Positions 49-54,650 of a stretch of 64,000 nt of DNA are shown in pieces (within the stretch, counting starts at the first letter, position 1; every line of letters begins with the position of its first letter). The position numbers were made by a program, and so were the translations under genes. The DNA is from an uncultured Anaerolineae bacterium (GTDB lineage: Bacteria > Chloroflexota > Anaerolineae > VGOG01). The stretch is taken from NCBI GenBank assembly GCA_964390805.1, contig CAYMKL010000014.1, positions 706-64,705 on the forward strand, written 5' to 3'. The notes under the pieces were generated by a model. The model did not search any database and had not been told where the DNA came from. It saw only the letters and a program-made list of their open reading frames with translations.

Positions 49-81
49 TGTTGAACCTAATTCCCTAGAGAGGTGACACCA

Positions 82-3000
82 ATGCAAGAATCTCCACCTG
101 AGAAAAGCAGTTTCCTTGACACCCCTATTCGGCTTCTTTTCAACGTGAATTGGGAAACCGTTCTCTATCTACTTCTTATCACTGTGGCCATAGTTACCCG
201 CTTCTACGACCTGGGGGCGCGGGCGTTTAGCCACGATGAGAGTTGGCATGGCAATTGGTCCTGGAAGCTGTATGCCGGCCAGGGCTACAAACACGACCCT
301 GCCAGCCACGGCCCCTTTCTCTTTGAAGCCAATGCCCTCATCCACTTGCTCTTTGGCGTGAATAGCTACACGGCCCGCATCGTGCCCGCCCTGTTCGGTG
401 TGATCCTGGTTGCATTGCCCTATCTCTTTCGCAAGTGGCTGGGGCGAACGGGAGCGCTGATTACTTCGCTGCTGTTTCTCATCTCGCCCTCTCTCCTCTT
501 TTACTCCCGCTACATCCGCAACGATATCTACATCGTCGTTTGGACCCTCCTTCTCATCTTCGCCATGCTCAGATACCTGGAGGAACGTAAGAGCTTTCAC
601 CTCTATCTGCTGGTTGTGATCCTGTCCCTCTCCTTTTGCACCAAGGAAGTTACCTATATGAATGGCGCTATCCTCGGTTCCTTCCTGGTGCTACTCTTCT
701 TCGTCCAATGGCTTGGCGATAAGGAGCGTACGATAAAGAGCTTTCCCGCCTTCGAGCTGGCCCTGGTGATGGCTACCTTAGTCTTGCCTCTCCTCTCCGC
801 TTTTCCCGTCAAATTTCTTCTGCGTGCTAATCCCCTGGACTATGGCCAGGCAGGAATCGTTCGCTCCGGCGCAACCTTTCTTGTCCTTCTAGCCATCTCT
901 GCTATTATCGGCATCTGGTGGGATTGGAAGCGATGGCTCATCTCTGCTGGGCTCTTTTACGGCATCTACATCGTCCTTTATACTACCTTCTTCACCAACG
1001 GCCAGGGCTTCGCCACGGGTGTGCTCGGTTCCCTGGGCTATTGGCTGGCCCAACAAGACGTCCATCGCGGCAGCCAACCCTGGTTCTACTATTTTGTCCT
1101 CATGCCCATGTATGAGTTCGTGCCGCTGCTGTTCAGTTTCATGGGGTTGGGGTATTGCGTTGTTAGAAGAAATAGAGACGAGGGAAAGGAAACTCCGTCA
1201 GTCCCCTTTATCCCCTTTCTGATTTACTGGTTGCTCGCCAGCCTGGTTATCTACACCTGGGCCAGTGAGAGGATGCCCTGGCTAGTCGTGCACCCTGTCC
1301 TCCCGATGATGGTCATGACCGGATACTTCATCGGCCGGGTTTTCGAGCGGATTGATTGGCGGCGGACATGGCAAGGCGGTGGGCCGGTCCTGGCTCTTCT
1401 GCTGATCCTCACTCTCTTCGCTGGTTCGGCTCTGGTTACGGCGGGGCCGTTTCAGGGGAGATCGCTGACTCAACTGAGCCGGACTCTACAGTGGCTGTCG
1501 GCTCTGGTGGTAGGCGCGATCCTTGTCTTTGGCGTGGTGCGCTACTGGCGCGGTCTGGGGACCAGGCACAGCTTGCAGGTGGTCTTCGTCACCGTGTTTG
1601 TGCTTCTATGCGTTCTGACCATTCGCTTCAGTGGGATGGCAGCTTACATCAACTACGATACCGCCAAGGAGTTCATCGTCTATGCTCATGGCACTCCTGA
1701 TATTACGCTGACCATGAAAGAGATCGAGGATATCTCGCGGCGCACGGTGGGTGACAAGCAGATCAAAGTGGCCTACGACAACGAATCCACCTGGCCTTTC
1801 GAGTGGTACCTGCAAGAATACTCCAACCTGGCCTATTATGGCGCTCAGCCGTCAAAACAGGCCCTGGACGCACCGATAGTCCTCGTCGGCCCACCCAACG
1901 ATTCCAAGGTCAGGCCCTTCCTGGGCGACAACTACTATTGGTTCAAGCGGCGGATGATCTGGTGGCCTATGGAAGAGTACAAGAACTGGACTCCAAGCAA
2001 GCTCCTTGCTATTTTGCGGGATCCGGCCAAGCGGCGTGAGTGGTGGAACATCCTTTGGTATCGCAAGTACCCTCGCTCCACCAGCGACTGGTATCACAGG
2101 GACGAGTTCTATTTCTGCGTGCGCAAGGACGTAATCAACCAGCTCTGGGACCACGGCGTCGGCCCGGCCCCGATAGAACTGGTGGAGGATCCCTATGAAA
2201 AGGGCAAGCGCGAGGTGCCGGCCTTGCAGATGTGGGGCAGCCAGGGTAAGGGCAATAGTCAGTTCCAAGATCCTCGAGGCATCGCAGTGGACGAGGCGGG
2301 CAACGTCTACGTCGCCGATAGCGGCAACCATCGCATCCAGAAGTTCGACTCGAATGGCAACTTCCTCACTCAATGGGGGAGCCAGGGAAGCGAGACAGGT
2401 CAATTCCAGGAGCCGTGGGGCATTGCCCTGAACGCCGAAGGCCACGTCTACGTAGCTGATACCTGGAGCCACCGCATTCAGAAGTTCGACGACGAGGGGA
2501 AATTCTTGGCACAGTGGGGCGGCTACCGAGCTACTGGTGGCGCTGCGGTCGGCGAAGAGGGCTTCTTCTGGGGGCCGCGCGACATAGCTGTTGACGCGGG
2601 GGGCAACGTGTATGTTACCGATACAGGGAACAAGAGGGTGCAGGTATTCGGGCCCGATGACCAGTTCCTCGACCAATGGGGCGGTGTCGGCGTGGAGGAC
2701 GGCCTTATGGACGAGCCTGTGGGTATCGCCACTGACGAGGAGGGCAACATCTACGTGAACGACACCTGGAATCAGCGAGTGCAGAAGTTCGACCAAGACT
2801 TCAACTTCGTCACCAGTTGGCCGATAACTGGCTGGTACGGCCAGTCGGTGGTCAACAAGCCCTACCTGGCCGCTAGTGGAGGGCGCGTCTACGTCACCGA
2901 TCCTGAGGGCTACCGAGTGCTAGTCTTCGACCAGGATGGCGAATTCGTAGCCACCTTCGGTGAGTACGGCCTCGACAGCAAATCCTTCGCTCTGCCGACC

Positions 3001-3087
3001 GGCATCGCCGTGGATGGGGACGGCAACGTCTACGTGGTAGATTCGGCCAACCATCGAGTGATGAAGTTTGCACCAATTGGCCAATAG
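82..3087 (+). CDS. polytopic membrane protein: GT-C-fold glycosyltransferase-like domain (PMT_2/TIGR03663-like) fused to C-terminal NHL-repeat beta-propeller
   Basis: 1004-aa ORF (GTG 73 or ATG 82); N-terminal about 700 aa multi-TM region shares motifs with ORF 60042-61892 (RIVPALFG, LISPSLLFYSRY); 2230-3084 carries NHL repeats (YVADSGNHRIQKFD, YVADTWSHRIQKFD, YVTDTGNKRVQVF, YVNDTWNQRVQKFD, YVVDSANHRVMKF). Confidence 0.8.
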   Translation: MQESPPEKSSFLDTPIRLLFNVNWETVLYLLLITVAIVTRFYDLGARAFSHDESWHGNWSWKLYAGQGYKHDPASHGPFLFEANALIHLLFGVNSYTARIVPALFGVILVALPYLFRKWLGRTGALITSLLFLISPSLLFYSRYIRNDIYIVVWTLLLIFAMLRYLEERKSFHLYLLVVILSLSFCTKEVTYMNGAILGSFLVLLFFVQWLGDKERTIKSFPAFELALVMATLVLPLLSAFPVKFLLRANPLDYGQAGIVRSGATFLVLLAISAIIGIWWDWKRWLISAGLFYGIYIVLYTTFFTNGQGFATGVLGSLGYWLAQQDVHRGSQPWFYYFVLMPMYEFVPLLFSFMGLGYCVVRRNRDEGKETPSVPFIPFLIYWLLASLVIYTWASERMPWLVVHPVLPMMVMTGYFIGRVFERIDWRRTWQGGGPVLALLLILTLFAGSALVTAGPFQGRSLTQLSRTLQWLSALVVGAILVFGVVRYWRGLGTRHSLQVVFVTVFVLLCVLTIRFSGMAAYINYDTAKEFIVYAHGTPDITLTMKEIEDISRRTVGDKQIKVAYDNESTWPFEWYLQEYSNLAYYGAQPSKQALDAPIVLVGPPNDSKVRPFLGDNYYWFKRRMIWWPMEEYKNWTPSKLLAILRDPAKRREWWNILWYRKYPRSTSDWYHRDEFYFCVRKDVINQLWDHGVGPAPIELVEDPYEKGKREVPALQMWGSQGKGNSQFQDPRGIAVDEAGNVYVADSGNHRIQKFDSNGNFLTQWGSQGSETGQFQEPWGIALNAEGHVYVADTWSHRIQKFDDEGKFLAQWGGYRATGGAAVGEEGFFWGPRDIAVDAGGNVYVTDTGNKRVQVFGPDDQFLDQWGGVGVEDGLMDEPVGIATDEEGNIYVNDTWNQRVQKFDQDFNFVTSWPITGWYGQSVVNKPYLAASGGRVYVTDPEGYRVLVFDQDGEFVATFGEYGLDSKSFALPTGIAVDGDGNVYVVDSANHRVMKFAPIGQ

Positions 3088-3135
3088 CTAATATCCATTA
3101 GCCAGTAAGTGGCTATTGGATATTGGCCGATAACA
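3084..3135. repeat. inverted repeat/hairpin between first and second GT-C genes (TTGGATA heptamer family)
   Basis: GCCAATAGCTAATATCCA ... GCTATTGGATATTGGC inverted arms. Confidence 0.4.
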
Positions 3136-3176
3136 CTGTCATCCACCAGCTATCTGCTATCAGCCATCTGCCAACT

Positions 3177-6100
3177 ATGCGAGAACGACGCAAAATCACC
3201 AATCTAGTACTGACCCTGGCGGCAGTGGGCCTGGGGTTCTTCGCCCAGAGCCGCTTTCGAACGGACGCCATTCGCGATGTCTTGATCCTCTACCTCGTGG
3301 CGGTTGTGCTCCTGGTCTATGCCAACCGCAGTCGAAGCTCAAAGTCCAAAGCTCGAAGCTCAAAGACCGACGCGGAGGACTCCCTGACCCTTCGACAAGC
3401 TCAGGATACCACGACACGGCTGGGGATCTCGACACGCCAGTTGGGCTGGGGCCCTTCGACCATAAGCGGAGCGACGCTCAGGGCAGGCCTGGCGTTGCTG
3501 GCCCTGGCTGGGGTCTGCATGCTTCTCTCGCTGCGTCTCTTCGGGCGTGGTGCTCCCACCACCCGCGCCTGGATCCTCTACCTGGCCAGCATTGCCCTCT
3601 TCGTAGCAGCCTTCTGGGCCATGGAATCCACCCCGAAGCAGTGGAACCTCCGACAACTTCTGTCATTCGACCCTTCGGCTATACTCAGGGCAGGCGGAAT
3701 TAAGACACTGGCTCGACTCTGGCCTCCTAAGATACAGACCGTTATCTTGATAGCGATCCTCATTGTCGCTGCTGTTGTGCGCCTCTACAACCTGGACTCC
3801 CTCCCCTTCGGCGTATGGTATGACGAGGCTGACAATGGCTTATGGGCGATTAGGATCATGGAGGATAGCAGTTATCGTCCCATCTACGTGCAGTCCACGA
3901 ACCTGCCAGCTCATTTCCTTTACCTCGTTGTTCTCTCATTCAAGCTCTTCGGTGTCAATGTATTGGCCATCCGCCTGATCACCGCCGGCTTAGGTGTATT
4001 GACAGTTGTTGCCGTCTATCTTCTGGTCGGGGAGATTCTCGATCATCGCCTGGCGCTTGTGGCGGCCTTCCTCTTGGCGATCTCCCGCTGGGATGTGAAC
4101 TTCAGTCGGTTGGGAATGCACGGAGTGAGCACCCCCCTCTTCACTGCCCTGGCTGCCTATTATCTTATCAAAGCGCTGCGCACCGAGCGGCATCTGGACT
4201 TTGCCTGGGGAGGTGTAGCTTTAGGCCTGGGACTTTGCTTCTATGCTCCTTTCCGTCTCTTCCCCTTTGTCATTGGGCTGTTCCTGGTCCACAAGTCAAT
4301 TGTCGAAAGGGGCTTCGTGAGGCGCTATTATCTGGGCATTCTGGTCTTCGTCTTAGCGGCTCTTCTGGTCTTTGCGCCGGTAGGTCAGTTCGCCTGGCAG
4401 CACCCCAAGACCTTCTTTGATCGCACCAGCGTCACCTCGATATTCAAGGATAAGACTCGCTCCCAGGCCATCGAAGCAGTGCGCCAGAGTGCCAAGCAGC
4501 ATCTCCTGATGTTCAACTATCGCGGAGATCCCAATGGCCGCCACAACCTGCCCGGCAAGCCGATGCTGGACTTTGCCACCTCTGCCCTCTTTGTCCTGGG
4601 TTTGGGCTACAGCCTATCCCGTTGGCGCCAGCCCAAATACTGGCTGCTAGCATTCTGGCTCTTGGTGATGCTGTGCGGGGGGATCCTCTCCCTGGAGTTC
4701 GAGGCTCCCCAATCCCTGCGAGCCATCGGCACCCTGCCCGCGGCCTACGTCCTGGCTTGTGTCCCCCTGTACCTAATCGTCACGGAATGGGATAAGTCAG
4801 TGGGGCGCTGGTCCTGGCTGCCAACTGCTGCCTGCTGCTTGCTGTTAACCCATATCGGCTGGAAGAACATGCACACCTACTTCCAGGTGCAGGCCAAAGA
4901 CTTCGCTGTCTGGAACGCTTTCTCCACCGCCGAGACCCTCACCGCCCGCCGCATGGCCGAAATGGGCCCTGATTACGACTTCCACGTCATTTCCCTCTAT
5001 CATAACCATCCTGTCCTGCGCTTTCTGGCCAGGAACATAACCCAGTACAAGCGCCTGGAGACCAACGCCACGATGCCCCTGCGGGAGAGCGGGGAGCGGG
5101 AGGCGGTGCTCTTCTTTGATCCTGAGAGGCGTCCCCTGTTCCTGGAGGCCAGGCGATACTATCCTGGGGGCACCTTTGAGGAGTTTCAACCTCCCCATGG
5201 CGGCCCCGCTGTGCTATACTCTTGCCAATTGACGCCTGGGCAGATCAAGGACATCCAGGGATTAGTGGGCCGTTATTACCAGGGAAGCGAGGGGGAAGGG
5301 AAGCCCATCCTGGAAAGCAAAGATGCCCAGCTTAGCTTCGACTGGGAAACCGAGCCGCCCTTGCCAGGGCCCTTCAGTGCCCGCTGGGAGGGAATACTCT
5401 ACGTCCCGCGATATGGACCCTATAACCTGGGCTTGGTGGCCCCTGCCGCAGGCCAGGTCTACCTGGATGAGAACGTCCTGCTAGAAGAGCCTGGCGAGGC
5501 CAAGCTTCTCCTGGCCAAAGGCAACCATGCCCTGCGAGTGGAAGCAGAAGACGGGGAAGGACGGGTGGATCTCTACTGGCAGCCACCGGGAGAGCCACCT
5601 AATCCGATTCCTCAACAGTTCCTGTATACCGCCCCGCCGGTGACCAACAACGGCCTCTTGGGCCGCTACTACCGGGGCCTGGATTGGGCGGGAGAGCCAG
5701 CCCTGGAACAGATTGACCCCTCCCTGGCTCTCTATTTTCACGTCACTCTGCTGAGTAGACCCTACACCGTAGAATGGACAGGCAAACTAGAAGCCCCTAC
5801 CGCTGGGAGCTACGGCTTCGGACTGGAGTCCATTGACGATTCCTGGCTCTATGTTGACGGCCAGCCGGTAGTGGAAACCCACGTGCCCAACCAGTACCGT
5901 GAGGGACAGATCAGCCTGACAGCGGGCTGGCACGACATCACCGTGCGTTATGTGGACAGGACCAACCATTCCCACATCAATCTTTATTGGAGACCCCCTG
6001 GCAGCGGGCAGCAGATCATACCCTCAGAACGGCTTCTTCCACCCCAGGGGGCTTACCCTGAACTCGTGGTGCATGCACCGACGGCTCCTCCTGTGCCCGC

Positions 6101-6938
6101 GAAACCCCAGGAGATGGCCTTGGGCCAGCCTGAGGTCTGGGGTGGGCCAGGAACAGACGAGGGGCTGTTCAACGAGCCCCGGGACATCGCCGTTGACAAG
6201 GAGGGGAACGTCTACGTGGCCGATACCGGCAACCGCCGCATCCAGAAGTTCGACAGTCAGGGTGAATTCCTCCTGACCTGGAGCGGCGAGGAGGAGAACT
6301 TCGTCGAGCCTCTGGCTGTGATCGTGACCAGTCAGGGTCAGGTATTCGTCCTCGACTCCGAGCCGGGATGGATCTATCGTTTCACGGCCGACGGCGAGCC
6401 TCTGGGGCGCTTCGGCGGGCCGGAGGCCCAGCTCTTCCATCCTCGGGGAATGGCCATTGATGCTCAGGACAACATCTACATCGCCGACACCGGAGGCTGT
6501 CGCTTAATCAAATACGATGTCCAGGGTAACCGATTGACCCAATTCGGGGAGAAGGGAAGTGGCCCCGGCCAGCTCCTGGAGCCCATTGACGTGGCCATCG
6601 GCCCGGGAGGTGACCTATACGTGACTGACGTGGCCAACCTGCGGATTCAGCACTGGGACTTCTTCGGCCGCTATCAGGGTGAATGGGCCGTCTCCCCGGC
6701 CAGCGCCTACAACGGTCCTCACCTGGCCCTGGCTGCTGACGGCAGCCTCTTCGTCACTACCCCTGAGCAGCACGAAGTGCGGCGCTATTCCCGCGGGGGC
6801 GAGCTTCTGGGCCAATGGGGTGGTCCGGAGCAGTTCCGCATCCCCGTGGGACTCACCGTGGATGAATCGGGCAACCTGTACGTGGCCGATACCTTGAACC
6901 ACCGCGTTCAGAAGCTCGAGAGCAGGACACTTGAGTGA
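3177..6938 (+). CDS. GT-C (ArnT/PMT family 39/83-like) membrane glycosyltransferase-like protein fused to two PA14 domains and C-terminal NHL repeats
   Basis: Open frame from 3123 (TTG inside repeat), ATG 3177 more plausible; YDEADNG acidic GT-C loop motif; PA14-like blocks about 5255-5640 and 5650-6040 (GLVGRYYQG..., GLLGRYYRG...WLYVDGQ); NHL repeats 6125-6935 (YVADTGNRRIQKFD, YVADTLNHRVQKL); stop overlaps next gene. Confidence 0.8.
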   Translation: MRERRKITNLVLTLAAVGLGFFAQSRFRTDAIRDVLILYLVAVVLLVYANRSRSSKSKARSSKTDAEDSLTLRQAQDTTTRLGISTRQLGWGPSTISGATLRAGLALLALAGVCMLLSLRLFGRGAPTTRAWILYLASIALFVAAFWAMESTPKQWNLRQLLSFDPSAILRAGGIKTLARLWPPKIQTVILIAILIVAAVVRLYNLDSLPFGVWYDEADNGLWAIRIMEDSSYRPIYVQSTNLPAHFLYLVVLSFKLFGVNVLAIRLITAGLGVLTVVAVYLLVGEILDHRLALVAAFLLAISRWDVNFSRLGMHGVSTPLFTALAAYYLIKALRTERHLDFAWGGVALGLGLCFYAPFRLFPFVIGLFLVHKSIVERGFVRRYYLGILVFVLAALLVFAPVGQFAWQHPKTFFDRTSVTSIFKDKTRSQAIEAVRQSAKQHLLMFNYRGDPNGRHNLPGKPMLDFATSALFVLGLGYSLSRWRQPKYWLLAFWLLVMLCGGILSLEFEAPQSLRAIGTLPAAYVLACVPLYLIVTEWDKSVGRWSWLPTAACCLLLTHIGWKNMHTYFQVQAKDFAVWNAFSTAETLTARRMAEMGPDYDFHVISLYHNHPVLRFLARNITQYKRLETNATMPLRESGEREAVLFFDPERRPLFLEARRYYPGGTFEEFQPPHGGPAVLYSCQLTPGQIKDIQGLVGRYYQGSEGEGKPILESKDAQLSFDWETEPPLPGPFSARWEGILYVPRYGPYNLGLVAPAAGQVYLDENVLLEEPGEAKLLLAKGNHALRVEAEDGEGRVDLYWQPPGEPPNPIPQQFLYTAPPVTNNGLLGRYYRGLDWAGEPALEQIDPSLALYFHVTLLSRPYTVEWTGKLEAPTAGSYGFGLESIDDSWLYVDGQPVVETHVPNQYREGQISLTAGWHDITVRYVDRTNHSHINLYWRPPGSGQQIIPSERLLPPQGAYPELVVHAPTAPPVPAKPQEMALGQPEVWGGPGTDEGLFNEPRDIAVDKEGNVYVADTGNRRIQKFDSQGEFLLTWSGEEENFVEPLAVIVTSQGQVFVLDSEPGWIYRFTADGEPLGRFGGPEAQLFHPRGMAIDAQDNIYIADTGGCRLIKYDVQGNRLTQFGEKGSGPGQLLEPIDVAIGPGGDLYVTDVANLRIQHWDFFGRYQGEWAVSPASAYNGPHLALAADGSLFVTTPEQHEVRRYSRGGELLGQWGGPEQFRIPVGLTVDESGNLYVADTLNHRVQKLESRTLE
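3331..3370. repeat. heptanucleotide tandem array (CGAAGCT/CAAAGTC) in-frame in N-terminus of ORF2
   Basis: gtcgaagctcaaagtccaaagctcgaagctcaaagaccga encodes RSSKSKARSSKTD. Confidence 0.6.
3383..3408. repeat. PEPVEG/LRQAQD element copy (CCCTTCGACAAGCTCAGGA)
   Basis: cccttcgacaagctcagga encodes LTLRQAQD in ORF2. Confidence 0.6.
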
Positions 6939-6942
6939 AAGA

Positions 6943-9561
6943 ATGAAGCCCCTGCTGCTACTCGCAATTGCATTTGTCCTGGCCCTGTCAGGTCAGCGCT
7001 GGGTGGACCAGCGGATTAACCTGAGCGATGCAGCCATCCTTTACGGCGCAGCTATGGTGCTGGCCGCCTGTGCCTACCGGTCATTGGACAAGCGTCCAAC
7101 CCCTGCTAGAGCACCCGAGACCTCAGCATGGACTCGCGCCTGGCGCAGGCTCACCAACCTGGGTAGCTCCGCAAAGCGGATTCCCGCACAGATGCGCCCC
7201 AGGCTTTCCGGCCTGGCTGCATCGGCAAGGCGGATCTTCTCTGACAGTCGGCCCAGGATTGCTGACCTGGCCGGATCGGCCAAGCGCACCTTCACCGAGA
7301 GTTGGCCCAGGATCGCTACGCTGGCCGGCGCTGTTCTCGTTGGGCTGCTGTCCCTGCGCGACTTCAACCTGGGGCGATCCAACCAGGGTGTGCGCCTCTG
7401 GCTGCTCAGCCTGGCTCTGCTAGTGCTGGCTGCACGTTCGCCCTTTTGGTGGCCCTCATTGGCCTGGCTCCGCTATCTGCGGTCAAAGGCAGCGAGCTTC
7501 CCGACACGGTGGCCTGTCCTCCGAGCCGATGTCACGGCTGCTCTGCACCGGCGGGAGCTGTGGCTATTCGGCCTACTGGTGCTGGCAGCTATCTTCTTCC
7601 GTCTGTGGAACCTGGACGAGGTGCCGCCGGCCCTCCACGACGATTCGGCCATCAATGCTCTCCTCTCTTTGGAGGTACTTCAGGACCGTCCTTATACGCC
7701 GTACATGACGGGCATTGGAGCTGGTCACGAAAGTCTCTTCATCTACCTCATGGCCGGCCTCATGAAGCTGATCGGCCCTACAGTTCTGGCCGTCAAGCTG
7801 GCGGCAGCCTTGGTGGGTCTGGCCACCGTGGTGGCCTTCTATGTCTTCGCTCGATCTCTCTTCAATGATGAGCGTGCCTTCTGGGCAAACTTTCTCCTGG
7901 CCGCAGGCGGCTGGCACATCACCTTCAGCAAGGTGGGCTGGCGGGCTGTCATGGTGCCTCTCTTCGAGGTGCTGGCCTTCTACTTCCTCTGGCGCGGCCT
8001 CAAATCGGCGCGGAAATTGGATTTCGTGTGGGCCGGCCTGGCCGTGGCCATGGGCCTCAACACCTACGAAGGCGGCCGTATTGTTCCTGTCATCGTGGGC
8101 CTCTTCGTTCTCTACAAGCTCGCCACCGAGCGCGGCTTCCTGCGACGCAACTATCAGGGTCTCGCGGTTCTCGCCCTTGCCTTCGCCATGGGCATGATCC
8201 CGCTCGGGATATACATCGTCAAGCATCCCACCGAGTTCGTGGCCCGCAGCCAACAGGTCATGGTTGCCGGGCGAATCCGCGAGGTGGGCAATCTCTCCCC
8301 ATTGTGGGACAACGTCAAAGCAGCACTGCTGCTGTTCAACTACCGGGGCAACGGCAACGATTTCTTCATCAACGAACCACTCATGGACTCGCCCATGTCT
8401 GTGTTCTTCGTGCTGGGCGTGATATATAGTTTGGTCAATTGGCGCAAGCCGGCTCACTTCCTGTTGCTGAGCTGGACTGTTCTGACACTGATGCTGGGCG
8501 TGCTGGCCGTGCCCAATGGCAACCGCTGCATCGGCGCCATCCCACCAGCCTACATGTTCGCCGGCCTTTTCCTGAGCGTATGTTGGGAGCAGTTGACGGC
8601 AATTGCGCGGGTTGCCCTGGGAGAACGCCGCCAATGGTTGCTCGTCGCACTGGCAGTCCCAGTGCTCGTTGTCATCGCACAGGGCACCTATCGCGACTAC
8701 ATTGGGCCTTCACGGCGCCCAATGCATGGCTTCTTCGAAGATGGATTGGCGGCGGGCAAACTCACCAAGTCCTACCTGGACGACTATCACATCTTCCTCG
8801 GTGATCGCTACTACGTGGCCCGAATAGTGCGTTTCATTACCTATCGCTCCGGCGAGTCACCCTCTCAACGCCCCTACAACCTCTTCGACCCTACGGCAGT
8901 GCTTCTCTTCAATCAGTTCCCTCAAGACCGGCCGCTGGCCTTCTTGCTGGAGCCCACTACCCGCAACCGTCAAATCATGGACCTGTTGCAAGATAAGTTT
9001 CCCAGCGCCACCTATGCCAGGCTTATGGACCCCGACAAACCGGGACGAGTGGGATTGCTGGCCCTGACCGTGCCGGGTGAGGCCGACGTCTCAGTCGCAG
9101 GCTACCAGCAGGGCCTTCTGGCGCGTTACTACCGCGGACCGGACTGGAATGGTTCGGTGTTGTATGAGATGGTAGATCCCCTCATCGCCGTTCATTGGCA
9201 CCTACAGATTCCCTCGTTCAGCGTATGGTGGCAGGGAATCATCATTGCCCCCGAGTCTGGCGACTACGTCTTTGAAACGCTGTCCGATGATGGCTCATGG
9301 CTGTACATTGACGGTCAACTGGTGGTAGACAACGGAGGTGTGCACAGCTCACGCCGTGCTTCCAACAGTGTGAACCTGCAAGCTGGCCCGCACGATATTG
9401 ATATAAAGTACTTCCAAGATGGCGGTGGCGCCACCATGGAGGTCTTGTGGCAACCGCCTCGTGGCCCCATGGAATTCCTGCCAGCCCAGGTGCTCTTTCC
9501 GCCAGGTACTGTGGATGTGGCTTCGTTGCCCCCTATCACGCTTCCACCTGTGATGGAGTAG
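6943..9561 (+). CDS. GT-C (ArnT/PMT-like) membrane glycosyltransferase-like protein with one PA14 domain, ended by an in-frame TAG before a residual NHL repeat
   Basis: Frame open from TTG 6931, ATG 6943 likelier; HDDSAIN GT-C loop motif; PA14-like block about 9100-9490 (GLLARYYRGPDWNG...WLYIDGQLVVDN); TAG at 9559-9561. Confidence 0.75.
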   Translation: MKPLLLLAIAFVLALSGQRWVDQRINLSDAAILYGAAMVLAACAYRSLDKRPTPARAPETSAWTRAWRRLTNLGSSAKRIPAQMRPRLSGLAASARRIFSDSRPRIADLAGSAKRTFTESWPRIATLAGAVLVGLLSLRDFNLGRSNQGVRLWLLSLALLVLAARSPFWWPSLAWLRYLRSKAASFPTRWPVLRADVTAALHRRELWLFGLLVLAAIFFRLWNLDEVPPALHDDSAINALLSLEVLQDRPYTPYMTGIGAGHESLFIYLMAGLMKLIGPTVLAVKLAAALVGLATVVAFYVFARSLFNDERAFWANFLLAAGGWHITFSKVGWRAVMVPLFEVLAFYFLWRGLKSARKLDFVWAGLAVAMGLNTYEGGRIVPVIVGLFVLYKLATERGFLRRNYQGLAVLALAFAMGMIPLGIYIVKHPTEFVARSQQVMVAGRIREVGNLSPLWDNVKAALLLFNYRGNGNDFFINEPLMDSPMSVFFVLGVIYSLVNWRKPAHFLLLSWTVLTLMLGVLAVPNGNRCIGAIPPAYMFAGLFLSVCWEQLTAIARVALGERRQWLLVALAVPVLVVIAQGTYRDYIGPSRRPMHGFFEDGLAAGKLTKSYLDDYHIFLGDRYYVARIVRFITYRSGESPSQRPYNLFDPTAVLLFNQFPQDRPLAFLLEPTTRNRQIMDLLQDKFPSATYARLMDPDKPGRVGLLALTVPGEADVSVAGYQQGLLARYYRGPDWNGSVLYEMVDPLIAVHWHLQIPSFSVWWQGIIIAPESGDYVFETLSDDGSWLYIDGQLVVDNGGVHSSRRASNSVNLQAGPHDIDIKYFQDGGGATMEVLWQPPRGPMEFLPAQVLFPPGTVDVASLPPITLPPVME
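7177..7332 (+). repeat. three tandem 54-nt (18-aa) repeats in N-terminal region of ORF3
   Basis: units 7177-7230, 7231-7284, 7285-7332 encode KRIPAQMRPRLSGLAASA / RRIFSDSRPRIADLAGSA / KRTFTESWPRIATLAGAV. Confidence 0.7.
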
Positions 9562-9798
9562 GCGACACCGACGCCAGGGGTGCAGCAACCCGTGGCCCTT
9601 GCCACCCCGCTGCCGGTAGAGACCCCCGTTGGTGAACTGGGCACTGGCCAGTTCATCCTCCAGTGGGGTAACCAGGGTTCCGCTGCGGGGCAGTTTGAGG
9701 AGCCGGCGGAGGTAGCAGTGGATGTGGAGGGCAACGTCTACGTGGCCGACCTGGGCAACAAGCGGGTGCAGAAGTTCGAAAGCAAGAGATTACAATGA
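9562..9798 (+). pseudogene. detached single NHL repeat in frame with ORF3 (truncated tail; ATG at 9580 would give a 72-aa ORF)
   Basis: Same frame as 6931-9561, separated only by TAG; encodes ...QWGNQGSAAGQFEEPAEVAVDVEGNVYVADLGNKRVQKFE; stop overlaps ATG of next gene (ATGA). Confidence 0.4.
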
Positions 9799-12700
9799 AG
9801 GAGCGAGCAACTTTCATTCTTCTTACCCTGGCTCTGGCGCTGGCCTTCACCGCTCAGCATTTCTTCTCCGCGGATAGAACCCATTACCGACAGGCGCTGC
9901 TCGTCTACGGCGTGGCCATCGTGGTGGTCTGGGTCTACGCTTTCTTAGAGGGGCACTGGTCGGGTTCGCTCCGGTCAGAAGAAGGCCAGTCTGCTCCGGC
10001 AGCGACCGACAATGAGCGCATCAATTTCACACCCCTTAGGTTTGCCCTGTTTTTTGCCTCTTTCCTGGCCCTGGCTTTCTCCCTGATGCTTCAACAAAGG
10101 AATAGCGCGTATCTGGGGCAGGTCATCTTCTGGCTGGTTGGCCTGGCCTTCTTGGTAGCCGCTTGCTGGCCTTACAGTACGCTAGGAGTTAGCTATTTCT
10201 GGCGCAAGTTGAAGTCCCACTGGGGCGAAATGTGCCTGGTGGTGCTGATCGTTGCGCTGGGATTCGCCCTGCGGGCCTATGGCCTAGATTCTATCCCTGG
10301 CGGCTTTCACGGTGACGAAGGCGAATGGGCGATGGATGCCGTGGCCATTATGGAGGGTAGATTGGTTCCTCCCTTCGGCACCGGCTGGGACAGGCACCCT
10401 AGCATGTTTTCATACCTGCAGGCCTTCACGATGAAGGTTTTTGGCATGAACGTAACGGGCGTGCGCATGCTCTCGGCCATAGCAGGCACGCTGACCTTGC
10501 TCGGCTTGTATCTGTTGGTCAGGCGGATGTTCGGTAGATGGGCAGCCATGGTGGCTGCTTTCCTGTTGGCGGTCTCCCACTGGCACATCCATTTCAGCCG
10601 CCTGGCCATGAACGACATTGAGGTCCCTTTGCTCACGATGCTGATCGTATACTTCCTGTATCGGGGGGTAGAGTCGCGGCGCCCCCTCGACTACTGCCTG
10701 TCGGGGATGAGCCTGGGACTTTGTTTCTATTTCGGCAACAAGTCGCATCTCCTTCCCCCCTTGATTGTCCTATTGTTCCTCTACCTGGTTATATTTAAGC
10801 GGGGCTTTCTCCGCCATCAGTGGCGCAACATCTTAGTCTTTCTCATTGCTACCCTCCTCACCTTCGCCCCCTTGGGGCTGTTCTATTCCCAGCGCAGATG
10901 GGAGGGCTTTGTGTTTGCCCGCTTGCAGAACCGCTCCATCTTCAACAACCTAGATCGCTTCTACGCAGTGTACGGCACTAAGGAAGTATGGGACGTGTTA
11001 CGCATCCAAACGGAGCGCACGGTGCTCCTTCTCAATTATTACACCGACGCCGGCATCTTCCTAACATTTACCCACGAGCCGCTGCTCGACTACTTCACCG
11101 CCGCAATCTATGTATTGGGCCTGGCCTACAGCCTGTATCATTGGCGGGAGGCGAAGCATGGGCTGCTCCTCTGCTGGTACGGTGTGACCCTCCAGGGCAG
11201 CATACTTTCCATTATTGCCCCGCAGGCCCATCGTATCGTGGGGATGATCCCTGTACCCTTTATCTTCGCTGCCATTGCCATTGAGCGTTTCCGGGGGGAG
11301 TTGGCCAAGGTGGCAAGTTGGCGCAAGGCCATCTACTCGGCCTTGCCCCTGGCCCTGTTCTTGGTCATTGTGGCCTACGTAAACATAGATGCCTACTTCG
11401 TCCGCTACGCCGAGAGGTGGCCCTGGTTGGACATTACGACCATGGCCAAGTACATCCGTGACCTGGGGCAGGATCACGCGATCTATTTCTTTGGGACGCC
11501 CCACACCTATGTCAAGCATGGTACCATACGCTTCATCGCTCACGGCGTAGACGGGGTGGACGTGGCGAACGCGGCCGACGTTGTGCCTGTCCGGCGAGAG
11601 GTTGACCGGAACGTGGCCTTTATATTGATGGGCAGCCATCTCCAGACCCTCTCCTTCATCGAGGCTTATTATCCCGGCGGCGTCTTGCGCAATTTCGAGG
11701 ATGCGAAAGGCAGAAAGCTATTCGCCGCCTATCTGGTTACGCAGCAAGAAGTGGCCAGTAATCAGGGTCTTGTGGCCCGCTACTACCGGGGTGCGGCCTG
11801 GGAGGGGGAGCCAGGGCTAACCAGGGAGGGAGTGGCGGTCTCGTTTGACCAGAGCGAAATCCGGTCCCCACCCTACAGTGTCCGATGGGAGGGCACCATA
11901 CATCTTCCCTCCCAAGGTAGTTACTTAATGGGATTGGACTCGACCCAACCCTCACGTCTGCTCATTGACGGCTCATTGTTGGTGAATAGTTCCGGCGGAC
12001 GACAGGCATCAGAGGCAACTTTGGCCGCTGGGCCTCATGCCATCACGGTGATGGGCATGGCTGCCAGCAGCGAAGACGCCATTGCCCTCTATTGGCGCCC
12101 TCCACACCAGGGTGAGAGAGTGGTTCCTAGCCATGTGCTGACGCCCAGGTCAGAGGCCAACGGCCTGCTGGGGAGTTACTACTCGAACAGCGATTGGGCA
12201 GGCGAGGCGGTTTTGCAGCGCATTGATCCTCTTATTTCCTTCCGATGGTTCCACCAGCCAAAGGCATCCCCCTTCTCCGTTCGCTGGGAGGGCTGGATTC
12301 GTGTGCCGGAGTCGGGCCGCTATACCTTCGAGACCTTCTCCAACGGCGAGGTTTGGCTCTCCATCGGTGGCCAATTGGTTCTCCATGACGATCAGCCGGT
12401 GGTGGAGAGATGGTATAGATCGGAGGCCGATCTGGTGGCTGGCTTGCACAAGCTGGAGCTTCGCTATCGCTATCTGTCTGGTTGGCGGTTGTTGGAACTC
12501 TATTGGACCAGGCCAGATGGGCTGAGGGAGTTGGTTCCAGCCGAGGGTTTCCTACCCAAGAGGGAAATCGTTCTGGCCTCCGGTATGGAGACGCAAGTTC
12601 CAGCGGCTGCAGGCTTGGCCTGGGGAACCCAAGGGGACGCTCCAGGCCAGTTCAATAACCCTCTAGACATCGCCGTTGATGACGAGGGCAACGTGTATGT

Positions 12701-13016
12701 GGCCGATAGCGGCAACCGCCGGGTGCAGGTCTTCGACGCGGCTGGCCGTTTTGTTGCCTACTGGCGAGGCGGCGATGAGAGGTTCGTCAGGCCTTCGGCC
12801 GTGGCTTGGGACGAGAGGGGATATGTCCTGGTGTTGGATTCTGGCACAGGGTGGATTCATCGTTTCACGGTTGATGGGCGTTTCCTGGAAAAGTTTGGTG
12901 GCCCTGCGGCTGGGGTTCTCTGCCCCTGCTGGCTGGCGGTGAATGAGGCTGGTCAGGTCTACGTGCTCGATAGCGGCCACAATCGGGTGCAGGTGTTGGA
13001 GCCGGCGGCCAGATAG
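9795..13016 (+). CDS. GT-C (ArnT/PMT-like) membrane glycosyltransferase-like protein fused to two PA14 domains and NHL repeats
   Basis: 1073 aa; HGDEGEW GT-C loop motif; PA14-like about 11765-12110 (GLVARYYRGAAWEGE) and 12160-12520 (GLLGSYYSNSDWAGE...); NHL repeats 12600-13013 (YVADSGNRRVQVFD, YVLDSGHNRVQVLE). Confidence 0.8.
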   Translation: MKERATFILLTLALALAFTAQHFFSADRTHYRQALLVYGVAIVVVWVYAFLEGHWSGSLRSEEGQSAPAATDNERINFTPLRFALFFASFLALAFSLMLQQRNSAYLGQVIFWLVGLAFLVAACWPYSTLGVSYFWRKLKSHWGEMCLVVLIVALGFALRAYGLDSIPGGFHGDEGEWAMDAVAIMEGRLVPPFGTGWDRHPSMFSYLQAFTMKVFGMNVTGVRMLSAIAGTLTLLGLYLLVRRMFGRWAAMVAAFLLAVSHWHIHFSRLAMNDIEVPLLTMLIVYFLYRGVESRRPLDYCLSGMSLGLCFYFGNKSHLLPPLIVLLFLYLVIFKRGFLRHQWRNILVFLIATLLTFAPLGLFYSQRRWEGFVFARLQNRSIFNNLDRFYAVYGTKEVWDVLRIQTERTVLLLNYYTDAGIFLTFTHEPLLDYFTAAIYVLGLAYSLYHWREAKHGLLLCWYGVTLQGSILSIIAPQAHRIVGMIPVPFIFAAIAIERFRGELAKVASWRKAIYSALPLALFLVIVAYVNIDAYFVRYAERWPWLDITTMAKYIRDLGQDHAIYFFGTPHTYVKHGTIRFIAHGVDGVDVANAADVVPVRREVDRNVAFILMGSHLQTLSFIEAYYPGGVLRNFEDAKGRKLFAAYLVTQQEVASNQGLVARYYRGAAWEGEPGLTREGVAVSFDQSEIRSPPYSVRWEGTIHLPSQGSYLMGLDSTQPSRLLIDGSLLVNSSGGRQASEATLAAGPHAITVMGMAASSEDAIALYWRPPHQGERVVPSHVLTPRSEANGLLGSYYSNSDWAGEAVLQRIDPLISFRWFHQPKASPFSVRWEGWIRVPESGRYTFETFSNGEVWLSIGGQLVLHDDQPVVERWYRSEADLVAGLHKLELRYRYLSGWRLLELYWTRPDGLRELVPAEGFLPKREIVLASGMETQVPAAAGLAWGTQGDAPGQFNNPLDIAVDDEGNVYVADSGNRRVQVFDAAGRFVAYWRGGDERFVRPSAVAWDERGYVLVLDSGTGWIHRFTVDGRFLEKFGGPAAGVLCPCWLAVNEAGQVYVLDSGHNRVQVLEPAAR

Positions 13017-13022
13017 CCAAAC

Positions 13023-13050
13023 TTGAAGAATCTCGCGAGTGTGGTATAAT
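13023..13050 (+). promoter_or_regulatory. sigma70-like promoter with extended -10 upstream of sucC
   Basis: TTGAAG 13023-13028, 16-nt spacer, TGgTATAAT 13042-13050; GAGGAGGAG RBS 13093-13101 then TTG start 13106. Confidence 0.45.
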
Positions 13051-13105
13051 TGGGGCGATCTTGGGTCCTGCCGATGGCGGGGCTTTGTTTTGAGGAGGAG
13101 AACCA

Positions 13106-14254
13106 TTGAAGCTTCAGGAGTATCAGTCCAAGCGCATCTTCGCTCAGCACGGCGTGCCTATCCCGGAGGGTGGAGTAGCTACCACCCCCCAACAGGCACG
13201 AGAGATCTCCGCGCGGCTGGGCAAGCCAGTGGTCGTAAAGGCCCAGGTGCTGGTGGGCGGCCGCGGGAAGGCGGGGGGCATCAAGCTGGCCGCGACGCCC
13301 GAGGAAGCGGAGGCCATCGCTACTCAAATCCTGTCCATGGATTTGAAGGGCTTGCCCGTTAGAAGCGTCCTCGTCGAGGAGGCTTCCGACATTGCCAGCG
13401 AGATCTACCTGGGAGTAGTCATTGACCGCGCTGCCAAGAGGCCGGTGATGATGGCCTCGTCCGAGGGCGGGGTCGAGATCGAGGAGGTGGCCCGCAGGAC
13501 TCCAGAGAAGATCATCAAGACCACTGTTGATCCCTTTCTGGGCTTGCAGGATTACCAGGTTCGAGAAGTGGCCTACGGAATCGGCCTGGGCAGCGACCTG
13601 ATACGGGGCTTCCTGAAAGTGGCCAAAGAGCTATATGCTGCTTTCACGAAGAGCGACGCCTCTCTGGCCGAGATCAATCCGCTGATCGTCACTGGTGACA
13701 GGACGTTGCTGGCCGTGGATGCCAAGATGATTTTGGACGACAACGCCCTCTTCCGCCACCCCGACCTGGCCGAGATGCGCAGCCTGGAAGAGGAGACGCC
13801 AGCGGAGCGCGAGGCGCGGGGCTACGGCATCAGCTACGTCCAACTCGATGGGATCGTTGGCTGTATGGTCAATGGGGCGGGGCTGGCTATGGCCACTATG
13901 GACCTCACCAAGCTACACGGTGGCGCACCGGCCAACTTCCTGGACATTGGCGGTGGGGCCAAAGCCGATAAGGTGGCCGCCGCCCTACGCCTCATCCTCT
14001 CGGACGAAAACGTCCAGGCTGTGCTGTTCAACATCTTCGGCGGCATCACCCGTTGCGACGAGGTAGCCAGGGGCATCCTGACCGCGTTGGAAGAAGTTGG
14101 GACCGATGTGCCCATGGTTGCTCGCCTGGTGGGTACGAATGAGGAGGAAGGCAGGGCAATCCTGGCTGAAGCCGATATGATCACCGCTGCTACTTTGGAG
14201 GAGGCGGCGCAAAAGGCGGTAGCTGCCGCGTCCACCTATGGAGAGCGAACATAA
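13106..14254 (+). CDS. sucC: succinyl-CoA synthetase (ADP-forming) beta subunit
   Basis: 382 aa; [20 protein letters not shown]...[21 protein letters not shown]-grasp N-terminus typical of SucC; TTG start with strong RBS. Confidence 0.92.
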
Positions 14255-14411: not shown

Positions 14412-15188
14412 ATGAAGGTTGATCTCAATTGTGACATGGGCGAGAGCTTCGGCCGCTATCGAATCGGCGCTGATGAGGCCATGATGCCGTACATCACCTC
14501 GGCCAACATCGCCTGCGGCTACCACGCGGGCGATCCGCTGGTGATGGACAGGACGGTTCGCTTGGCGGCGAAGCATGGGGTAGGAGTCGGCGCCCATCCC
14601 GGTTTCCCTGACCTCATGGGTTTTGGCCGTCGCGCCATGCAGCTCTCGCCTGAGGAGATCGAGAACTGCATCTTGTACCAGGTGGGGGCGTTGGCTGCCT
14701 TCGCCCGCGCCGCCGGTGTGGAATTGGTGCACGTGAAGCCCCACGGCGCTCTGTACAACATGGCGGCCAGAGACATGGAACTGGCCAGGGCCATCGTTCA
14801 TGGCATCGCACGCTTTGGCAAAGAACTCATCGTAGTTTGTCTGGCTGGCTCAACCATGATCGAGGCAGCAGAGGAGGCAGGCCTCCGTGTCGCTCAGGAG
14901 GGCTTCGCTGATCGGGCTTACAACCCGGATGGGACACTGCAATCCAGGAAGGAGCCCGGTTCCGTCATCCACGACCCGCAAGGGGCGGCTGAGCGGGCGG
15001 TGGCCATGGTGCGTGACAAAATAGTTGTCGCTCACACGGGCGAGGAGATACCCATCCACGTGGATACCATCTGCGTCCACGGCGACAGCCCAGGAGCCGT
15101 TCAAATCGCTAAGACCATTCGCGCAGAGCTGAAGGCGGCGGGGATCGAGGTGAAGCCCATGGAGAGTTTCGTCAGGAGGCTGATATGA
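14412..15188 (+). CDS. pxpA: 5-oxoprolinase subunit A (LamB/YcsF family)
   Basis: 258 aa; [14 protein letters not shown]...[13 protein letters not shown]...GAHPGFPD motifs of LamB/YcsF. Confidence 0.88.
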
Positions 15189-15409
15189 AGACCGCGGAAG
15201 TAGTGGCTACAAACGTTAAGACCCTACTGGAAAGCTTCGGTGATCAAGAGCTTGTCGTCATGCCTCTTTCCAGATACAGGGAGATAATAGAGATGATAGA
15301 GGACTTGGAGGATGCCATCGCTGTGAAAAGAGCGATGGAAACTTCAGAAAGGCTTCTCCCCTATGGTGAGGTTAGGGCACGCTTAGTAGCCAAAGGGATT
15401 TTAGAGTGA
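15185..15409 (+). CDS. type II antitoxin, Phd/YefM-like
   Basis: 74 aa, start overlaps pxpA stop (ATGA); [23 protein letters not shown] resembles Phd/YefM; immediately upstream of a RelE/ParE-like ORF with 4-nt overlap. Confidence 0.55.
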
Positions 15410-15675
15410 AATATGAGCTTTTCGTTGATGAGCGCATTGATGACAAACTCCTTCGCTTTCCTCGTGACGTGGTAAGGGGCATAGACAAGGCTCTTCGCGC
15501 TTTGAGAGATGACCCTCGACCGCGAGGCTGTAGAAAGATCAGAAGCACAAAGGATTGCTGGAGAGTTACAGTGCGGAAAGATTACCGCATATTGTACAGA
15601 GTTGATGATGAGGCAAAAGCAATTGAGGTGTATGAAATAACCCGCAAGGAGAAAGATACTTACCGAAGGCGATAG
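15406..15675 (+). CDS. type II toxin, RelE/ParE superfamily
   Basis: 89 aa; ...DDPRPRG..KIRSTKDCWRVTVRKDYRILYRVDDEAKAIEVYEITRKEKDTY matches RelE/ParE fold signature (YRI.Y.vd...i.v..i.hRk). Confidence 0.65.
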   Translation: MKYELFVDERIDDKLLRFPRDVVRGIDKALRALRDDPRPRGCRKIRSTKDCWRVTVRKDYRILYRVDDEAKAIEVYEITRKEKDTYRRR

Positions 15676-15729
15676 CTCATTGATAACCCATCAACTTCGG
15701 GAACTGGTGTTTCAGATCAGGAAGATCGA

Positions 15730-16416
15730 ATGACGTTTCGTGGCAAACTTCGCCTTCTTCTGGCTGGCGACTCGGCTTTGGTGGTCGAGTTCGGCGACGA
15801 GATAAGCCTGGAGGTGAACCGCAAGGTTCACGCCCTCGCTAGTGCCCTGGGGAAAGCTTCTCTCCTCGGCCTGGGGGAAGCCGTTCCCACCTATCGCTCT
15901 CTCCTGGTTCATTACGATCCCCTCCACCTTTCCTGCGACGAGGTCAAGGCTTTTGTCTCGGAGGTCCTCCAAGACTGCGAGGAGAAGCCCTTGCTCGAAC
16001 CCAGGCTGGTCGAGGTCCCGGTTGTCTACGGAGGTGAGTCTGGCCCAGACATGGAGTTCGTGGCCGAGCATAACGGCCTGTCGGTTGAGGAGGTGATAAG
16101 CCTCCACTCCGGTGCCACCTACACCGTTTACATGCTGGGTTTCGCACCTGGCTTCGCCTATCTGGGTGGGATGCCAGAGGCCATCGCCACCCCACGGTTG
16201 GAGACGCCTCACACTCTCGTGCCAGCGGGCTCAGCGGGCATCGCTGGAGAGCAGACGGGCATATACCCTATCGCTACCCCCGGTGGATGGCGTTTGATTG
16301 GCAGGACACCTCTTAAGCTTTTCGATCCGGAGCGCGACCCACCCACCCTGCTGAAAGCGGGGGATACAGTTCGCTTCGTGCCCATATCGGAAGGGGAGGA
16401 GCGAAGTGGCCCTTGA
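15730..16416 (+). CDS. pxpB: 5-oxoprolinase subunit B (KipI / allophanate hydrolase subunit 1 family)
   Basis: 228 aa; ...ALVVEFGDEISLEVNRKVHAL...PTYRSLLVHYDP typical of PxpB/KipI. Confidence 0.85.
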   Translation: MTFRGKLRLLLAGDSALVVEFGDEISLEVNRKVHALASALGKASLLGLGEAVPTYRSLLVHYDPLHLSCDEVKAFVSEVLQDCEEKPLLEPRLVEVPVVYGGESGPDMEFVAEHNGLSVEEVISLHSGATYTVYMLGFAPGFAYLGGMPEAIATPRLETPHTLVPAGSAGIAGEQTGIYPIATPGGWRLIGRTPLKLFDPERDPPTLLKAGDTVRFVPISEGEERSGP

Positions 16417-54630: not shown

Positions 54631-54650
54631 GGTAAACTCCTTTCGCACTC

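Follow-up and report, generated by a model that had tools for sequence, protein, structure and literature searches.

An operon of two kinds of GT-C membrane protein genes with NHL and PA14 modules in an Anaerolineae bacterium, with a variable cassette before sucC

Here, we describe four consecutive GT-C-type membrane protein genes, O1 to O4, at one end of a 64,000-nucleotide stretch (hereafter, the window) of contig CAYMKL010000014.1 from an uncultured Anaerolineae bacterium (assembly GCA_964390805.1). The four genes form a genuine operon built from two different kinds of gene. O1 belongs to the TIGR03663 family and carries a predicted six-blade NHL propeller, while O2, O3, and O4 are true paralogs that separated long ago within an ArnT/PMT-like GT-C family and carry PA14 domains. 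An earlier reading of the same DNA (the original prediction) had taken the array for a four-fold tandem expansion of one architecture; this gave way to a class-wide TIGR03663-NHL gene followed by three old paralogs from another GT-C family. Of what is new here, the class-wide core cluster, the variable PA14 cassette between O1 and sucC, and the snapshot of domain loss in O3 are the most useful.

RESULTS

Two gene families in one operon

All four proteins passed the Pfam profile PMT_2 (PF13231; gathering score, 26.1 bits), with 43.5, 61.5, 38.8, and 83.5 bits for O1 to O4, which bore out the GT-C assignment by hidden Markov models; O1 and O4 also exceeded the threshold of Pfam PMT (PF02366), with 52 and 31.8 bits, respectively. 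The acidic first-loop motifs were found where they had been placed in O2, O3, and O4, and O1 has a motif of its own (Table 1). Only O1 passed TIGR03663, whose curated cutoff is 126.25 bits. It scored 298.8 bits, in agreement with its first description as a TIGR03663/PMT_2-like protein, whereas O2, O3, and O4 reached 48.2, 40.8, and 35.3 bits and are therefore not members. At NCBI, TIGR03663 bears the name "flippase activity-associated protein Agl23." An invariant DE dipeptide, an HGP tripeptide, and two arginines near the N terminus are what we take to be the hallmarks of the family. Among 37 O1-family sequences, R40, R47, H51, D52, H76, and G77 were invariant, and E53 and P78 were at least 90% conserved. 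A PDB sequence search with the O1 membrane domain gave no match even at an E value of 10.

O2, O3, and O4 were collinear over their full length at 29 to 33% identity (O2 versus O4, 33% over 1033 amino acids [aa]). In this family, a four-helix N-terminal extension precedes the GT-C domain, and the last membrane helix is followed by an alpha/beta domain, one or two PA14 domains, and an NHL module, most of which O3 has lost. The part of the O1 membrane domain that could be aligned with O2 and O4 spans only some 185 aa (25 to 27% identity), and BLAST found no match to O3. When the O1 and O4 families were compared with hhalign, the probability was 98.8% at 18% identity, with the DE motifs aligned. 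The O1 and O2-O4 families are thus homologous at the superfamily level only, and the claim of four tandem paralogs held for O2 to O4 but not for O1. The NHL modules were closer to each other (36 to 41% identity), and the O2 module aligned with the O1 propeller over 282 aa. In the O4 family, D174 was invariant and E175 was at least 90% conserved across 40 sequences. None of the four proteins matched the ArnT equivalog model NF009784 (GT83; at least 567 bits), and the TIGR03663 gene at the far end of the window reached only 22.8 bits.

The PA14 profile (PF07691; threshold, 24 bits) gave 83.1 bits for O2 in two stretches, 69.9 bits for O3 in one, and 107.3 bits for O4 in two, with none in O1, so that the predicted range of zero to two PA14 domains per gene was confirmed. 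One to six NHL repeats had been expected in each protein. Pfam NHL (PF01436) matched O1, O2, and O4. We counted six blades in O1, three in O4, and about six in O2 (from its length and its collinearity with the O1 propeller), but none within the O3 open reading frame (ORF). In Pfam, even at an E value of 10, no match was found for the four-helix N-terminal extension, GtrA-like families included, or for the alpha/beta domain.

Operon boundaries and integrity of the assembly

The same-strand run behind a good sigma-70 promoter stood as first described. The overlapping or abutting junctions did not hold between O3 and O4, where 233 nucleotides (nt) are occupied by a relic of the O3 C terminus, the TGA of which overlaps the O4 ATG. 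The array ends before sucC because a separate good promoter precedes that gene.

DNA repeats within the array were confined to the NHL units (60 to 75% identity) and the PA14 N-terminal motifs (five copies). In addition, contigs from two other sequencing runs of the same strain were 100% identical over the array. A misassembled repeat, a concern raised with the original prediction, was ruled out because the repeats are only of low identity and the two other runs gave identical contigs.

Table 1. Features of the array and related features of the window (aa, amino acids; L numbers, related loci)
Feature	Start	End	Strand	Remarks
Promoter of O1	20	48	+	Sigma-70 type; TTGACA-N17-TACAAT; 11/12 consensus positions
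O1	82	3087	+	TIGR03663 (Agl23-like) GT-C, alpha/beta domain, six-blade NHL, no PA14; start 73 or 82, ATG 82 likely
O1 GT-C membrane domain			+	aa 24-520
O1 D52-E53	235	240	+	Motif SHDES
O1 alpha/beta domain			+	aa 539-690
O1 NHL propeller	2224	3084	+	Six blades; aa 715-1001
O2	3123	6938	+	Four-helix N-terminal extension, ArnT/PMT-like GT-C, two PA14, about six-blade NHL; start 3123 or 3177, ATG 3177 likelier, as in public gene calls
O2 D234-E235	3822	3827	+	Motif WYDEADNG
O2 PA14, first	~5259	~5627	+
O2 PA14, second	~5646	~6029	+
O2 NHL region	~6129	~6926	+
O3	6931	9561	+	N-terminal extension, GT-C, one PA14; stop-truncated; start 6931 or 6943
O3 D237-D238	7639	7644	+	Motif LHDDSAIN
O3 PA14	~9112	~9510	+
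In-frame TAG ending O3	9559	9561	+	CAG-to-TAG nonsense mutation; CAG in L006, L008, and L045
O3 C-terminal relic	9562	9798	+	O3 frame continues through a linker and a single NHL blade; TGA over O4 ATG
O4	9795	13016	+	Four-helix extension, GT-C, alpha/beta domain, two PA14, three-blade NHL
O4 N-terminal extension			+	aa 1-125
O4 GT-C core			+	aa 143-541
O4 D174-E175	10314	10319	+	Motif HGDEGEW
O4 alpha/beta domain			+	aa 545-655
O4 PA14, first	~11766	~12104	+
O4 PA14, second	~12156	~12545	+
O4 NHL half-propeller	~12627	~13004	+	Three blades; aa 945-1070
Promoter of sucC	13023	13050	+	TTGAAG-N16-TATAAT, TG extension; 10/12 consensus positions
sucC	13106	14254	+	Directly downstream of the array
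Second TIGR03663 gene	60042	61892	-	No ectodomain; TIGR03663, 176.6 bits
TIGR03662/DUF2298 (Chlor_Arch_YYY) gene	61959	64000	-	TIGR03662, 344 bits; Pfam DUF2298, 221.7 bits

Predicted fold and topology

AlphaFold 2 models of O1 and O4, built with homolog alignments, reached mean predicted local distance difference test (pLDDT) values of 85 and 87, respectively, and both matched solved GT-C structures. In Foldseek searches, the O4 model matched AglB (E value, 1e-10) and ArnT (9e-9; template modeling [TM] score, 0.55), and also STT3, PglB, EmbA/B/C, ALG12, and Pmt4. Its PA14 pair matched the tandem PA14 of RsgI3 (E value, 1e-16), and its three NHL blades matched the designed protein Pizza3 (TM score, 0.80). 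Full-length O4 orthologs (74 to 79% identical) keep the three blades, and a Cys-Pro-Cys motif is conserved.

The O4 model contains the four-helix extension and an 11-helix GT-C core, and the O1 model contains about 15 helices. When the first loop was set outside, as in GT-C enzymes, lysine and arginine made up about 19 to 20% of the short cytoplasmic loops and about 7% of the outer loops. In O4, 11 such residues fell within 58 aa assigned to the cytoplasm, compared with 6 within 85 aa assigned to the outer side; the corresponding counts for O1 were 12 within 61 aa and 10 within 142 aa. The N terminus is thus predicted to lie inside the cell. The alpha/beta, PA14, and NHL domains would lie outside, because they follow the last membrane helix and because both the GT-C topology and the positive-inside rule point that way. 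The proposed ectodomain placement of PA14 and NHL was therefore supported.

Loss of the O3 propeller

O3 ends at an in-frame TAG shortly after its PA14 domain. Its orthologs in L006, L008, and L045 are 1129 to 1137 aa long, are 80 to 82% identical over aa 4 to 876, and continue into a full NHL region. The relic downstream of the TAG is annotated by gene callers as an ORF of 68 to 72 aa starting from the GTG at 9580, and about 185 aa, comprising most of the NHL region past the first blade, is deleted relative to the orthologs. Because the three orthologs have CAG at this codon and the full NHL region, we conclude that a C-to-T nonsense mutation, together with a deletion, has cost O3 its propeller and left the GT-C and PA14 parts intact.

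Recoding or readthrough of the TAG was ruled out, since TAG is the stop codon of 9 of the 25 genes in the window and the orthologs carry CAG. A sequencing error is unlikely, as the same TAG was found in the two other runs, although these came from the same strain. The ratio of nonsynonymous to synonymous substitution rates (dN/dS) was 0.26 for O3, 0.18 to 0.20 for the other genes, and 0.13 for sucC. The GT-C and PA14 parts of O3 are therefore still under purifying selection. The 79-codon relic gave 0.40, a value that we do not interpret because just 47 codons could be aligned.

As a separate observation, a unit of about 18 aa occurs three times in tandem in the long, basic cytoplasmic loop of the O3 N-terminal extension (about 7150 to 7335, forward strand; aa ~75 to 135), with the pattern L-[AG]-x-S-A-[KR]-R ... 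P-R-[IL] as judged by eye.

A conserved core and a variable PA14 interval

Relatives of O1 were found in at least 596 species genomes (one genome per species), and all 80 among the matches listed were from Chloroflexota, mostly Anaerolineae. Full-length proteins combining TIGR03663 with NHL (about 1000 to 1150 aa) formed well over 100 clusters at 46 to 87% identity. Databases name O1-type proteins "TIGR03663 family" or "flippase activity-associated protein Agl23." Gene order was classified in 80 scan loci from the O1-family alignment and in seven others. The usual order was a large DUF2298 protein, a DUF2298/TIGR03662 protein (about 860 aa), a TIGR03663 protein (about 600 aa), and O1, with sucC often next. 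In 43 of 63 loci, the gene immediately before O1 was of this ~600-aa TIGR03663 type.

The TIGR03663 and TIGR03662/DUF2298 genes noticed earlier at the other end of the window were both confirmed (Table 1; the TIGR03662 cutoff is 300.25 bits). The second TIGR03663 gene is the best match of O1 in the window (27% identity over about 600 aa), and its orthologs, 76 to 79% identical, adjoin O1 in L006, L008, L012, and L045. The TIGR03662/DUF2298 gene runs past the window end, with no stop up to 63998 and its first ~200 residues outside the window. TIGR03662 thus co-occurs with TIGR03663 here, and many related loci have DUF2298 genes upstream of O1. The two families were flagged long ago as a pair common to Chloroflexi and Archaea. 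In relatives the pair adjoins O1, whereas here it lies about 47 kb away on the opposite strand, so that the cluster must have been broken up by a rearrangement. Two further observations concern this gene neighborhood. In several loci, a protein of 1300 to 2250 aa encoded upstream combines PMT_2 and DUF2298 (e.g., L004, 1-3985), and in L035, three O1-type genes stand in tandem (5531-14041).

Only 12 of 61 loci had PA14-bearing GT-C genes after O1, and the number of such genes between O1 and sucC ranged from zero to four in relatives (one to four where present). O2 orthologs at 75 to 83% identity were found in four loci, next to an O4 ortholog in L005 and an O3 ortholog in L006, L008, and L045, all within the same identity range. 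In L003 and L012, O1 is 84% and 80% identical, respectively, yet the PA14 genes there are only 31 to 43% identical to any of O2 to O4. Because O1 is conserved at 80 to 84% where the PA14 genes are so divergent, the latter make up a variable cassette between the conserved flanks O1 and sucC.

An architecture of this kind might have been expected to be rare, but at least 68 of the best 150 clusters (50% identity) were collinear from GT-C into PA14, at least 32 of these on into NHL, and databases already name such proteins automatically. Given this count, GT-C-PA14 proteins are common in metagenomes.

Other genes and elements in the window

Downstream of the sucC promoter but ahead of the start codon of that gene, a 10-bp stem-loop with a T-run behind it (13063-13085, forward strand) may act as a leader or attenuator. 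Between sucC and sucD (17396-18256), the window carries the 5-oxoprolinase genes pxpA/B/C (14412-17374, forward strand), whereas in relatives this place is taken by a small gene of the HIT family. Scans of the window for Rfam families and tRNAs gave no match.

On the reverse strand, two adjacent giant ORFs (30758-41695 and 41863-54648) encode 3645 and 4261 aa with bacterial Ig-like, TSP3, Kelch, FG-GAP, and DUF11 domains, and on account of these domains, the products are probably surface proteins. The 211-aa gene at 54651-55286 (reverse strand) has a subthreshold NHLP-leader-like N terminus and a C-terminal ubiquitin-like domain (PF00240, 33 bits), and 3 nt separate its stop from the beginning of the 4261-aa gene. 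A 723-aa regulator is encoded at 55436-57607 (reverse strand), with a long unassigned N-terminal region and then GAF, receiver, and OmpR-type DNA-binding domains.

DISCUSSION

Proposed function

We consider it fairly likely that the encoded enzymes take sugars from polyprenyl-phosphate carriers on the outer side of the membrane and attach them to an envelope glycan or a surface protein, while PA14 and NHL hold the acceptor. What follows on donor, acceptor, catalysis, and the parts played by PA14 and NHL is inferred. Polyprenyl-phosphate-linked sugars would be made in the cytoplasm by enzymes encoded elsewhere and flipped to the outer face, possibly with the aid of TIGR03663 proteins. The invariant Asp-Glu pair in the first outer loop would then catalyze transfer to an envelope polysaccharide or surface protein. 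Meanwhile, the PA14 and perhaps the NHL domains would hold the acceptor, like the carbohydrate-binding modules (CBMs) of EmbA/B/C and AftD or the MIR domains of PMTs. The paralogs would differ in sugar or acceptor, and turnover of the cassette would diversify the surface glycan. O1 and the DUF2298/TIGR03663 core would contribute a conserved step to this pathway, either transfer or supply of the lipid-linked donor. The acceptor may be either a protein, as for PMTs, or a polysaccharide, as for the Emb proteins.

Several points weigh against this proposal. The architecture had been called uncharacterised, and indeed the searchable literature yielded no experimental work on PA14- or NHL-fused GT-C proteins or on bacterial TIGR03662/TIGR03663 proteins; it offered only an appendix table, in which DUF2298 stands beside a PMT2/PA14 gene in another Chloroflexi genome. 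In the loci examined, neither a donor synthesis gene (GT2 polyprenyl-phosphate sugar synthase) nor an acceptor candidate was found beside the cluster. The topology rests on homology and charge bias, not on a dedicated predictor. The three-blade NHL of O4 cannot close into a propeller alone; its conservation in full-length orthologs suggests that two O4 molecules may pair to complete the ring. We know of no established sugar-binding role for NHL propellers, so that acceptor holding by NHL is a guess. Finally, the only studied TIGR03663 protein, Agl23 of Haloarcula hispanica, was reported to be a flippase and not a transferase: it is described as a putative hexose-P-dolichol flippase, and the purified protein reportedly translocates M5GN2-PP-Dol in liposomes (PMC11182771). 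The earlier description of the proteins as lipid-linked-sugar transferases with recognition ectodomains was thus supported in its external placement but challenged by what is described for Agl23.

Flippase or O-glycosylation roles

The Agl23 report bears directly on an alternative role for O1. Together with the second TIGR03663 protein, O1 might be a flippase or scramblase that supplies the outer-face donor to O2 to O4 or to other GT-C enzymes. Besides the translocation by purified Agl23, the TIGR03663 score of O1 and its database name agree with such a role, as does the fact that O1 is always present while the PA14 transferases are optional. On the other hand, the O1 family keeps in the first outer loop the H-G-P motif and an invariant H-D-E-S motif of catalytic type, as well as a highly conserved external six-blade propeller that a simple flippase would not need. 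Moreover, 49 of 61 loci lack a PA14 transferase after O1, and O1 therefore cannot serve such transferases solely. Taken together, we regard a purely flippase-type O1 as possible but doubtful.

A similarly tentative place is given to protein O-glycosylation of the PMT type, in which secreted or surface proteins, e.g., the giant Ig/Kelch proteins, would be modified and NHL would bind the protein substrate. The Pfam PMT matches of O1 and O4 and the PMT-style Asp-Glu pair are consistent with this, NHL propellers are classic protein or RNA binders, and two giant surface-type proteins that could serve as glycosylation substrates are encoded at 30758-54648. However, PA14 is chiefly carbohydrate binding, and its closest solved match here is the polysaccharide-sensing domain of RsgI3. 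No conserved linkage to a substrate gene was seen; the giant genes lie 18 to 40 kb away and were not found in the loci of relatives. In addition, the fold matches to ArnT, STT3, and ALG12 equaled or exceeded that to Pmt4.

Sensing and decay

Two further explanations are very improbable in view of the invariant catalytic-type motif and the dN/dS values. One holds that PA14 and NHL are sensors of external polysaccharide, as in RsgI and PknD, and that the proteins signal rather than catalyze. The tandem PA14 match to the RsgI3 sensor domain, the NHL match to the PknD sensor domain, and an extracytoplasmic function sigma factor with a LiaF-like gene near one distant locus (L004) speak for it, but the proteins have the full GT-C fold and no cytoplasmic signaling domain, and the sigma factor link occurs in that one locus only. 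The other, that the genes are decaying functionless duplicates or an assembly artifact, draws on the O3 lesion and the varying copy number among relatives, and is largely refuted already for O1, O2, and O4 by dN/dS of 0.18 to 0.27 across the four genes (O3 included), by full-length orthologs in several genomes with conserved catalytic residues, and by the assembly evidence given above.

Cassette turnover and its implications

If the array decorates an envelope glycan, as we propose, turnover of the cassette would give access to surface variation between strains of Anaerolineae. Sludge and sediments harbor many of these bacteria, and such variation could bear there on phage or predator pressure. 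More speculatively, and with a rather low chance of being right, the O1-sucC interval might be a cassette by which Anaerolineae diversify their surface glycans, much like an O-antigen locus. Close relatives would exchange, duplicate, and erode lectin-fused GT-C enzymes, and an envelope polymer made by the class-wide DUF2298/TIGR03663/O1 core would thereby be redecorated from outside.

The envelope of Chloroflexota is poorly understood, and, judged by its spread over species genomes, O1 with its DUF2298/TIGR03663 neighbors is among the most widely conserved membrane protein clusters seen. O1-type genes also occur in metagenome-assembled genomes of taxa with cultured members, namely, Caldilinea aerophila, Bellilinea, Leptolinea, and Anaerolinea. 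Experiments may thus be feasible if isolates of Caldilinea, Bellilinea, Leptolinea, or Anaerolinea carry the cluster.

Comparison with known systems

External acceptor-binding modules are a familiar theme of GT-C enzymes, with CBMs in EmbA/B/C and AftD and MIR domains in PMTs. The array is a variation on this theme, and if the proposed function is right, PA14 and NHL join the known acceptor-binding modules. In EmbA/B/C and AftD, external CBMs hold the growing polysaccharide acceptor. As in the array, a GT-C domain is followed by external lectin-like modules, and the Emb genes are also tandem paralogs. However, the array has PA14 and NHL instead of CBM-type modules and a Chloroflexota host, and the Foldseek match of the O4 model to EmbA/B/C (E values, 4e-7 to 1e-5) is at fold level only (11 to 14% identity). 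Compared with ArnT (GT83) and PMT (GT39), O2 to O4 have the additional four-helix extension, as well as PA14 and NHL modules, which neither ArnT nor PMT has. The array proteins in turn lack the MIR domain found in eukaryotic PMTs.

O1 and the far-end gene share with archaeal Agl23 the TIGR03663 match, the invariant DE, HGP, and two arginines, and a TIGR03662 partner. Unlike Agl23, O1 adds an alpha/beta domain and the six-blade NHL (about 480 aa), and since O1 is bacterial, its lipid carrier is presumably not dolichol. Flippase activity is reported for the archaeal protein only.

Among other proteins with such ectodomains, no structure matches the O4 ectodomain better than that of RsgI3 (PDB 6QE7; 25% identity), which also has external tandem PA14. 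RsgI3 is a single-pass signaling anti-sigma factor, whereas the O4 pair sits on a transferase-type domain of about 15 helices. The NHL sensor of PknD, from which Pizza3 and Pizza6 were derived, is likewise a bacterial extracytoplasmic NHL domain, but it is carried by a kinase and not by a GT-C enzyme. The three-blade Pizza3 reportedly dimerizes into a six-blade ring. Partial propellers like that of O4 may similarly close only when two enzymes pair, which would make them a natural counterpart of Pizza3.

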